DNA of 64,000 bases from an uncultured Bacillales bacterium (lineage in GTDB: Bacteria > Bacillota_I > Bacilli_A > RF39 > UBA660), in NCBI GenBank assembly GCA_946623125.1, contig CAMOQR010000001.1, positions 2,178 to 66,177 on the forward strand. Reading direction: 5' to 3'. The translations under genes and the position numbers were made by a program. Positions 44,126-45,382 of the stretch are shown piece by piece. The notes beneath the pieces were generated by a model that was given only the letters and a program-made list of their open reading frames with translations, was not told the DNA's origin and searched no databases. Within the stretch, counting starts at the first letter, position 1. Each line of letters begins with the position of its first letter.

Positions 44126-45382
44126 TTAGGCTCCTACATAACGTAGAACACCATCCCAAGAACCATGATAATTTCTCACCGTTATCTCTTGTCCCGTTAA
44201 ATCTGCAGGAGAATTATCACGAGTACCTGCAGCAGCAACAAGTTTTCCATCTCCAATATACATCTCTGTATGATGATTTTCTCTTAAAACAACATCTCCA
44301 GGGAGCAAATCGTTAACATTAGGATTCCCTGGAATCCAAACAAAACCAACCTTAGTAAAAGTAGAACGCATATTATGAGTTGTGTTAGCACCAGCAGCCT
44401 TAACCGGTATTCCAGCAGATTCAAATGCTGAAATAACAAAAGAAGAGCAATCATAACTAGGACTTCCCCAACGTGATGCCTGAGAGTATCCATGAGAATT
44501 ATCATTGGCAATATTAATCGCCCAATCAATAGCATTATTAATAATAGAACTAACTGTATAACGATGATTAGCACCAATATTTTGAATCTTTACAATACGA
44601 TCCGAAATATTATTTGTAATATTCTCGTCATTGTTTTCATCATAATCTTCATTAACAAAGAACCTAATTTCTTCTCTATCTCCATCCGTAGTTTGACCAA
44701 TAATACATTTAATCTCTGTACCATCATCAAGAGTAAAGACAATAACATCTCCAACCTTACCTAAAGATTCATGACAAGAAATAACAAACATTCCCCCAAT
44801 TTCTGCAATACCAAGTGCACCATATTTAAAATCTTTGTGATTAACGATTTCCTTACCTTGAGCTGATAAAGATGCAACGGAGGTTAAGATAGAACCAAAA
44901 ACTGGATTTTCAAGTTGAATATCAACAGGCTCTCTTTTATAAGTAGACGCGGCAACTGTAGAACCAGCAGATGCAACTGCACCACCACCAGCAGCAACAG
45001 GAGCAGCAGAAGCATAAGAAGCACCACCACCACCAGAAGATGCAGAATAAGTTCCACTTGAAGAAAATCCTCCAGCAGAATCATATACACTACCAGAACC
45101 AGAATTTGCTCTTTCTTGAGCAGCACCAAATCTCAAATCATTTTGCAAAGACATATGAGATACCACAACATCATTAATAATAGTTGCCGTATTCGAAATC
45201 TTAATAGAACAAGCCTCTAAATTGGCTGCTATAACAGATTTTGCTGAAGAAAAATCAAAATCAGTACAACTTGTATCATATCCATTAACAGTTCCAGATA
45301 AATTTGAAATCTTAGAAGCCAAAGTAGAAAAAGTAGATTGGACAGATGAAACAGTATCCGTATCTAATAAAAAAACAGCCAT
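44126..45382 (-). CDS. LXG/WXG-like N-terminal domain, Gly/Ser/Ala linker, unknown middle domain and C-terminal NlpC/P60 cell-wall endopeptidase
   Basis: C-terminal NlpC/P60 Cys and His motifs (YDCSSFVISAFESAGIP; LLPGDVVLRENHHTEMYIGDGKLV). N-terminal 90 aa with NLSG. The linker is SGSGSVYDSAGGFSSSGTYSASSGGGGASYASAAPVAAGGGAVASAGS. There is no signal peptide. RBS GGAGGTAA. Confidence 0.6.
   Translation of the reverse strand: MAVFLLDTDTVSSVQSTFSTLASKISNLSGTVNGYDTSCTDFDFSSAKSVIAANLEACSIKISNTATIINDVVVSHMSLQNDLRFGAAQERANSGSGSVYDSAGGFSSSGTYSASSGGGGASYASAAPVAAGGGAVASAGSTVAASTYKREPVDIQLENPVFGSILTSVASLSAQGKEIVNHKDFKYGALGIAEIGGMFVISCHESLGKVGDVIVFTLDDGTEIKCIIGQTTDGDREEIRFFVNEDYDENNDENITNNISDRIVKIQNIGANHRYTVSSIINNAIDWAINIANDNSHGYSQASRWGSPSYDCSSFVISAFESAGIPVKAAGANTTHNMRSTFTKVGFVWIPGNPNVNDLLPGDVVLRENHHTEMYIGDGKLVAAAGTRDNSPADLTGQEITVRNYHGSWDGVLRYVGA

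Follow-up and report, generated by a model that had tools for sequence, protein, structure and literature searches.

We describe here a protein, encoded in a 64-kb stretch of DNA from an uncultured Bacillales bacterium (contig CAMOQR010000001.1; the whole stretch is referred to below as the window), that is very probably a peptidoglycan hydrolase, and that we regard, by analogy with characterised systems, as a reasonably probable substrate of type VIIb secretion carrying this hydrolase as its cargo. The gene opens an operon in which three small genes of the WXG100 type follow it (Table 1), and among the envelope hydrolases with type VII heads, which form an array throughout the lineage, its product has the most compact form. 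The absence of an ordinary export signal, taken together with the helical head and the three partner genes, suggests that one group of uncultured gut Bacilli exports its wall hydrolases by type VII secretion.

Results

Catalytic domain

The enzymatic assignment comes from the C-terminal module, in which residues 282-388 match the Pfam models ELLD (39.6 bits, cutoff 27), Amidase_5 (27.6 bits, cutoff 21) and NLPC_P60 (25.9 bits, cutoff 23); no Pfam match was obtained over residues 1-280. A profile of the family of this domain matches RipC at 1.8e-5 and CwlO at 8e-5, and the domain has the papain-like fold of the NlpC/P60 (PF00877) and ELLD (PF25309) families of clan CA. Cys312 (YDC312SSF) and His371 (H371TEMY) align with the catalytic pair of CwlO and RipC, and both are invariant in 85 unique family members. 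A preliminary description of this DNA, made from the letters and their open reading frames (ORFs), had named the cysteine of YDCSSFV and a His-His pair as the catalytic context, and had held that the assignment would fall if the Cys and His were missing upon proper alignment. The alignment recovers both residues, and of the two adjacent histidines it is H371 that is conserved, whereas H370 is variable.

In P0013, a full-length orthologue of 541 amino acids from another metagenome, Ala replaces the catalytic Cys (YDASSF), and given this replacement some copies in the family are probably catalytically dead. The ELLD domain is also present in Clostridia (L032-L088, from Ruminococcus flavefaciens, Blautia wexlerae, Lachnospiraceae and Oscillospiraceae), where it lies N-terminally in proteins of 700-1300 amino acids or within proteins of 240-330 amino acids, all of them lacking both helical heads and WXG100 neighbours; two of these (L032 and L063) also hold a fragment matching the barrel domain described below. 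The clostridial proteins are probably hydrolases of conjugative elements or phages.

Export signals and the N-terminal head

A GGAGG ribosome-binding site precedes the ATG of the hydrolase. With an in-frame stop 6 codons 5' of that ATG, a longer N-terminus is impossible, which disposes of a signal peptide, whether of the Sec or the Tat type, at an alternative upstream start. The Kyte-Doolittle 19-residue mean of the protein peaks at 1.26, and its N-terminus (MAVFLLDTDT) has zero Lys or Arg and two Asp among the first 10 residues. From the low hydropathy maximum and this composition it follows that the hydrolase has no transmembrane segment and no Sec/Tat-like signal, as the preliminary description had maintained. 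Its further argument, that a cell-wall hydrolase in this form needs a non-Sec export route, is still the best reading, and is supported by context outside the coordinates that it covered, namely the WXG100 genes, the conserved operon and the presence of essC in one related locus. The four-module architecture that it gave to the 418-residue ORF (head, linker, middle domain and NlpC/P60-type C-terminus) also holds. In the region 5' of the gene a candidate promoter, TTGTTA-17-TAAAAT with an upstream TG, lies at 45453-45425, although a scan for promoters and terminators gave counts that were not above those of shuffled sequence. No paralogue of any of the hydrolase modules was found elsewhere in the window by tblastn.

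An AlphaFold2 (AF2) model of the hydrolase, built on 15 full-length orthologues that are 45-50% identical, places two helices in the head (termed head A; relatives also have heads B and C) at residues 8-33 and 45-94, with a turn at residues 34-44 and a predicted local distance difference test score (pLDDT) of ~71. The head thus has the helix-turn-helix hairpin of ~100 amino acids that is typical of WXG100 proteins (PF06013), but neither the W-x-G motif in the turn nor a match to the family profile: the turn of the window head reads GYDTSCTDFDF, with no Trp, and the head has no Pfam match of any kind. The A1/A2 alignments reveal instead a signature of its own, V32-x-G34-Y35-D36-T37-S38...F44 in the turn, along with a conserved SHxxLQNxL motif (S-H76-x-x-L-Q80) late in helix 2. 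A head A consensus is common to ~100 cluster representatives, five positions (M1, F4, F45, H77 and Q81) being conserved in at least 90% of a 100-relative alignment, and a custom hidden Markov model (HMM) detects the head in more than 20 related loci. Matches of the relatives' heads to any Pfam model are sporadic (WXG100, PPE, EspC or T7SS_signal); in 14 orthologue heads EspC was matched in 3/14 (best E value 0.0026) and WXG100 in 1/14 (0.066). Comparison of head A with head B and with wxg1 by hhalign gave probabilities of only 3% and 13%, which are not significant, and the resemblance of its N-terminus to that of wxg1 (MAKYICDFDVVSSV versus MAVFLLDTDTVSSV; hhalign E 0.0022 over 20 columns) is likewise not significant. 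As such, sequence homology of head A to head B or wxg1 is unproven; the head is WXG100-sized and hairpin-shaped, yet by sequence it belongs to no named family.

The preliminary description had called this segment LXG-like, on account of an NLSG motif (residues 27-30) at the position of the Leu-x-Gly motif of LXG domains, and in that light the protein would be a polymorphic toxin of the canonical LXG class whose LXG domain is shortened. It does share with such toxins an N-terminal helical region, a C-terminal enzyme, small helical partner genes and the want of a signal peptide. However, no match to PF04740 (LXG) was found for the window protein at E<=1, nor for the 14 orthologue heads at E<=10; the head measures ~90 amino acids against the ~200 of an LXG domain; and the NLSG motif is a coincidence, as its Gly is present in 2/15 full-length orthologues and the motif sits inside helix 1 and outside the turn. 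Furthermore, the partner proteins match WXG100 and not the Lap families DUF3130/DUF3958, and no immunity gene accompanies them. The missing Pfam match and the unconserved motif largely refute membership of the LXG family, and we consider the LXG toxin interpretation as a whole to be highly improbable.

Partner genes and conserved operon order

The operon consists of the hydrolase gene and three wxg genes on the same strand, spaced 14-83 nt apart. The second and third of the small proteins match the Pfam WXG100 model above its cutoff of 27.3 bits (wxg2, E 1.3e-8, 35.4 bits; wxg3, E 3.2e-6, 27.7 bits), and wxg1 falls under it (E 0.011, 16.5 bits). At the C-terminus, wxg2 keeps an AG(A/S)(H/R)L(F/Y) tail, and the tail of wxg3 in the window, L001, L003, L005 and L006 keeps (N/Y)-x-x-A-D (NEAAD, NQQAD, YSAAD, NEEAD), which recalls the YxxxD/E motif for export found in type VII substrates of mycobacteria.

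Table 1. Features of the hydrolase operon, in window coordinates.
Feature	Position	Strand	Description
Hydrolase ORF	44126..45382	minus	418 amino acids; first gene of four-gene operon
Head A, proposed type VII targeting head	45122..45382	minus	Residues 1-87; N-terminal helical hairpin
Gly/Ser/Ala-rich disordered linker	44939..45121	minus	Residues 88-148
Double-psi beta-barrel middle domain (modelled)	44555..44938	minus	Residues 149-276; MltA/RlpA/expansin/cerato-platanin type
NlpC/P60-type (Pfam ELLD) papain-fold peptidoglycan hydrolase domain	44126..44554	minus	Residues 277-418 plus stop
wxg1	43819..44106	minus	95 amino acids, W43-N-G45; 19 nt downstream of hydrolase
wxg2	43436..43735	minus	99 amino acids, W-K-G; most EsxA-like of the three
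wxg3	43122..43421	minus	99 amino acids, W-x-S-x-G variant (W-A-S-A-G); last operon gene, convergent with FemAB
Intergenic region 5' of hydrolase	45383..45484	minus	102 nt; GGAGG ribosome-binding site and candidate promoter

A scan for the C-terminal domain with one genome per species gave 321 loci, of which ~20 come from the same uncultured gut/rumen Bacilli lineage, their records being titled Bacilli, Bacillales, Erysipelotrichaceae or Mollicutes metagenome-assembled genomes (MAGs). Custom HMMs for the three head types (A, B and C), the barrel, the C-terminal domain and the three WXG100 proteins were applied to 26 related Bacilli loci (among which L011 duplicates L003), and these reveal a conserved order: head B-ELLD, (head C-X)n, head A-linker-barrel(-ELLD), wxg1, wxg2, wxg3. 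The orthologue contigs keep the same slot and synteny among housekeeping genes at 45-50% protein identity. A wxg1 orthologue comes directly after the head A protein in 15/17 loci that have a head A-middle-domain protein, and the wxg2-wxg3 pair, whose members always travel together, is kept in 20 related loci. Head A is paired with the barrel in 17/23 head A proteins, and in 11 of these the two make up the whole protein (e.g. L005:11785-12765); head A, barrel and ELLD are united in only 6 ORFs of the set (5 distinct loci) in addition to the window protein, and genomes with this fusion may, like the window, lack a separate head B-ELLD gene. Because the modules are usually separate, and the fusion genomes may do without a head B-ELLD gene, the four-module protein is a fusion, joining two cargo modules that in most relatives belong to separate head-bearing proteins (head A-barrel and head B-ELLD).

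Every cargo found on the heads, the barrel included, is an envelope hydrolase: heads B and C carry ELLD, glucosaminidase, phage-type lysozyme, Peptidase_C39_2 and esterase domains, and none of the heads in the related loci was found to carry a nuclease, an NADase or a pore-forming protein. Such a collection might be taken for a bacteriolysin arsenal, exported by type VII as antibacterial effectors that lyse competing Gram-positive cells, with the producer protected by its wall chemistry and not by a dedicated immunity protein. All well-studied large substrates of type VIIb secretion systems (T7SSb) are antibacterial toxins (PMC10765036, PMC13492133). The type VI Tae effectors provide a precedent for such an arsenal, and related genomes differ in how many hydrolase genes they have and of which types, much as polymorphic effector islands do. 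A FemAB gene, moreover, borders the array in at least 14 loci, and enzymes of the FemAB type are known to confer immunity to lysostaphin and zoocin A. The case for FemAB as a dedicated immunity partner is weakened, however, as it is absent within 10 kb of the array in L014 and L017 and represented in L023 by a distant paralogue only, and its proximity looks more like synteny than like a proven linkage. No immunity-type gene was found inside or beside the operon or the array, whose closely spaced genes occupy a fixed core-genome slot in conserved order and not a variable island. We therefore consider an antibacterial arsenal unlikely. That the array acts on the producer's own wall, through remodelling or the opening of a secretion path, is more likely than that it is a polymorphic toxin, given the fixed core-genome slot among housekeeping and wall-synthesis genes, the tight packing, the lack of immunity genes and the full range of bond specificities that the array covers.

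Link to type VII secretion

The features by which a T7SSb substrate is recognised, namely the absence of a Sec/Tat signal, a helical N-terminus and co-encoded WXG100-type partners, are all found in the window protein, and one related locus, L023, places the array next to an essC-type gene. There the orthologous array (head B-ELLD, head C, head A-barrel, wxg1-3) ends 96 nt before a same-strand ORF of 1542 amino acids, whose FHA domain and 2 FtsK_SpoIIIE domains (E 7e-48) give it the architecture of EssC; a run of ~100-residue helical proteins comes after this ORF. Homologues of this protein at 48-83% identity are common, several having the NCBI name 'type VII secretion protein EssC [Bacilli bacterium]', and essC is widespread in MAGs titled 'Bacilli bacterium'. 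At L089:10001-17016 and L092:10001-16999, and also at L023:13447-19972, the gene (1541-1546 amino acids) heads a conserved operon of seven small proteins (84-161 amino acids), only one of which matches WXG100. A second link is a DUF4176 gene beside the array in L006, DUF4176 being a T7SSb toxin-chaperone family (PMC13492133).

The DUF4176 gene belongs to a segment upstream of the array, at L006:7001-9127 (and in the equivalent part of L012), which encodes a 387-residue helical protein, the 96-residue DUF4176 protein and a 213-residue coiled-coil protein with a weak DUF3958 match; this segment looks like a separate LXG-like toxin module with chaperones.

Several observations weigh against export of the window protein by type VII. 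Neither essC nor any other core gene of the system was found in the window or in the ~10 kb beyond either end, and the window has no ORF of EssC size; we infer the presence of essC in the source genome from its relatives. The gene adjoins the array in only 1 of ~26 loci. No EsaA- or EssB-sized gene lies within 10 kb of the lineage essC, and as such the type VII apparatus of this lineage may be atypical or unusually minimal, or its other parts may be very divergent. The cargo is also a concern in that position 385 (the +14 position) is His in 29/30 lineage copies and Ala in the window protein, and a window copy with Ala385 could have reduced activity; at +12, the canonical position of the third polar residue of the catalytic triad, the lineage has Gly and the window protein has Ala. 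A frameshift, which might have accounted both for the divergence of residues 383-398 and for the missing His385, was rejected because the other frames are full of stops. Activity of the domain is nevertheless likely on sequence grounds, as Asp394 and Glu399, which are invariant or nearly so in the family, are both kept in the window protein, and position 385 is His in only 32/55 of the wider family.

Linker and middle domain

The head and the cargo are joined by a linker of 61 residues, of which 43 are Ala, Ser or Gly. It is disordered in the AF2 model (residues 87-148, pLDDT 27-39), differs in length and sequence between orthologues, and has a GC content of 47% compared to 31-39% for the other hydrolase modules. 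Spurious ORFs of poly-L and H/Q-rich composition run over it in other frames (44884-45129 minus and 44971-45177 plus), and the GC-rich, low-complexity linker of about 60 residues with spurious ORFs that was described from the sequence at the outset is thereby borne out.

The region that follows was initially assigned to no recognisable family. No Pfam match was found for it at E<=1, and to that extent the assessment stands, but a fold can now be assigned. AF2 models residues 150-271 as a beta-rich domain with a pLDDT of ~88, and this middle domain has the double-psi beta-barrel fold known from MltA, RlpA and expansins, in agreement with the wall domains RlpA/DPBB_1, 3D and MltA. The Pfam families of barrel type match neither the window protein nor 100 relatives, and a profile search of the PDB with the middle domain returned chance matches only. 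Cys203, Cys226, G211-D212 and D220-G221 are invariant. The acidic D/E/N patch that had been placed at the end of the domain is an internal loop (residues 244-262), after which comes a barrel strand at residues 263-271. The domain is a probable binder of glycan strands, perhaps with lytic transglycosylase activity; catalysis is uncertain, since the position equivalent to the catalytic Asp of RlpA is variable in the family. A profile search of 1.84 billion cluster representatives found 650 relatives at E<=1e-3 and 185 at E<=1e-10, and almost none of the 100 aligned representatives has any Pfam match, from which we conclude that the family is sizeable and without a curated model.

Surroundings of the operon

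The operon lies between a gene for a MurJ/Wzx-type flippase and the convergent FemAB gene, with no further ORF between it and either neighbour. Around these are genes for leucyl-tRNA synthetase (LeuRS), tyrosyl-tRNA synthetase and a TrmB-like protein, together with other housekeeping genes, and the ~10 kb past each end of the window hold only genes for the signal recognition particle, RNase J/Y, RecA, a penicillin-binding protein, a sortase and the like. These surroundings bear on a further alternative, in which there is no type VII export and the protein is a lysin of the kind used in phage release, conjugation or sporulation, working from inside the cell or set free by a holin or lysis, its WXG100 neighbours being coincidental. 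In Clostridia the same catalytic domain does head proteins of 700-1000 amino acids that have no helical heads. Nevertheless, the genes around the operon are all of the housekeeping kind, with no phage, holin or conjugation gene among them; phage or plasmid records match the hydrolase over residues 297-418 only, on which ground a prophage or plasmid origin was rejected; and more than 20 genomes share the arrangement of head and WXG100 genes, which in one case lies directly beside essC. A lysin of this sort is, to our mind, very unlikely.

Some further features of the region are recorded here. A YkuD-type L,D-transpeptidase with an immunoglobulin-like domain (47195-48628, minus strand) lies between the flippase gene and that of a Fic/DOC-family protein (48921-50099, minus strand); the transpeptidase is absent from this place in L001 and L003, and the Fic gene is conserved beside the flippase and LeuRS genes across several relatives (L001, L003). 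A 122-residue ORF without a Pfam match (52579-52947, minus strand) overlaps the LeuRS start by a few bases and has the same position in L001, L003, L005 and L009. Two proteins of 376 and 221 amino acids (38960-40090 and 40107-40772, both minus strand) also have no Pfam match, and in all related loci examined they keep their position beside the TrmB-like methyltransferase gene and upstream of a 99-residue ORF and a YtxH gene. Just past the high end of the window, L009/L010:12587-14562 encodes a pilin-like protein with SpaA/TED domains and a sortase, and this pair adjoins a formate-tetrahydrofolate ligase gene that runs off the window end. The presence of the pilin-like protein and the sortase indicates that the organism has a sortase-decorated Gram-positive wall.

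Discussion

If the window protein is a type VIIb substrate, its export can be pictured in four steps. In the cytoplasm, the ~90-residue hairpin of the head would form a bundle with at least one of the three co-encoded WXG100 proteins, in the manner of the LXG-Lap complexes and of EsaD with EsxB/C/D. The EssC ATPase, which we infer to be encoded elsewhere in the genome, would then recognise the bundle and export it without a signal peptide, and the disordered Gly/Ser/Ala linker would serve to connect the head to its cargo. Outside the membrane, the double-psi beta-barrel would bind, and possibly cut, glycan strands, and the NlpC/P60-type domain would cleave stem peptides or the MurNAc-L-Ala bond.

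A broader proposal, which we advance only tentatively and as somewhat doubtful, is that in these wall-bearing gut and rumen Bacilli of reduced genome type VII secretion, instead of delivering toxins, is the route by which the cell routinely exports the enzymes that remodel its own wall. An endopeptidase/amidase, a muramidase, a glucosaminidase, a C39-like peptidase, an esterase and a barrel-type glycan binder would in this case all leave the cell via EssC, by means of three interchangeable helical heads and a fixed trio of WXG100 chaperones, and the window protein would be a two-cargo fusion among them. If this proposal is correct, it would provide a handle on how type VII substrates cross the thick Gram-positive wall.

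Irrespective of how far that proposal extends, the locus reveals a conserved multi-gene family in which wall hydrolases with type VII-style heads are found with WXG100 genes, and once beside essC. Should type VII export of these proteins prove true, the known range of T7SSb cargo would widen, a new short targeting head would be defined together with a wall domain of barrel type (650 cluster representatives) that is not covered by Pfam, and there would be a natural system in which to ask if wall-cutting enzymes are supplied by type VII machines themselves. There is also a pitfall for prediction, as signal-peptide tools would score head-bearing hydrolases as 'cytoplasmic'.

The characterised large substrates of T7SSb are nucleases, NADases, lipases, membrane-depolarising proteins and a lipid II phosphatase; reviews of 2023 and 2026 list no peptidoglycan-hydrolase substrate, and treat passage through the thick wall as an open question (PMC10765036, PMC13492133). 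In a 2012 survey of polymorphic toxins, NlpC/P60 toxin domains were tied only to type VI, PVC and TcdB-type export. Our literature search found no description of the head-linker-barrel-ELLD architecture or of a peptidoglycan hydrolase as T7SSb cargo. As such, the new elements of the system are the short head, the barrel domain without a curated model, and the hydrolase cargo on substrates of the type VII style.

The closest parallels in organisation are the LXG toxins with their Laps (Streptococcus intermedius TelA-TelD) and EsaD with EsxB/C/D (Staphylococcus aureus). These likewise do without a signal peptide and run from an N-terminal helical targeting region through a variable or disordered middle to a C-terminal enzyme, and they are co-encoded with small WXG100-like helical proteins, which in those systems form a composite export signal (PMC13492133); the DUF4176 gene in one locus related to the window (L006) is a further likeness. 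The window protein differs from them in its head of ~90 residues with no L-x-G or W-x-G motif and no LXG Pfam match, in partners that lie downstream and match WXG100 instead of DUF3130/DUF3958, in having no immunity gene, in its peptidoglycan hydrolase cargo, and in the location of its locus in the core genome with conserved synteny.

Among wall-active proteins, the two-domain hydrolases of Gram-positive conjugation (Tn916 Orf14-like and CwlT-like) and the lysins of phage tails have signal or transmembrane anchors or are parts of the virion, and reside in mobile elements; unlike the window protein, they have no helical head and no WXG100 genes. MltA, RlpA, the YuiC/3D domain and bacterial expansins are 5-14% identical to the window barrel, which has no Pfam match and whose family is set apart from them by its two invariant Cys residues. 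Last, EssH, a CHAP-domain wall hydrolase of S. aureus required for T7SSb secretion, is like the window protein a type VII-linked enzyme of papain fold (CHAP/NlpC-P60 superfamily), and it too has a disordered region before the catalytic domain (PMC13059805). EssH carries a Sec signal peptide at residues 1-24 and no helical head (PMC13059805), whereas the window protein has no signal peptide, a helical head, WXG100 partners and an extra double-psi barrel, and so does not share the plan of a Sec signal peptide, disordered N-domain and CHAP domain. By analogy with EssH, a role for the window protein in opening the wall for secretion is plausible.

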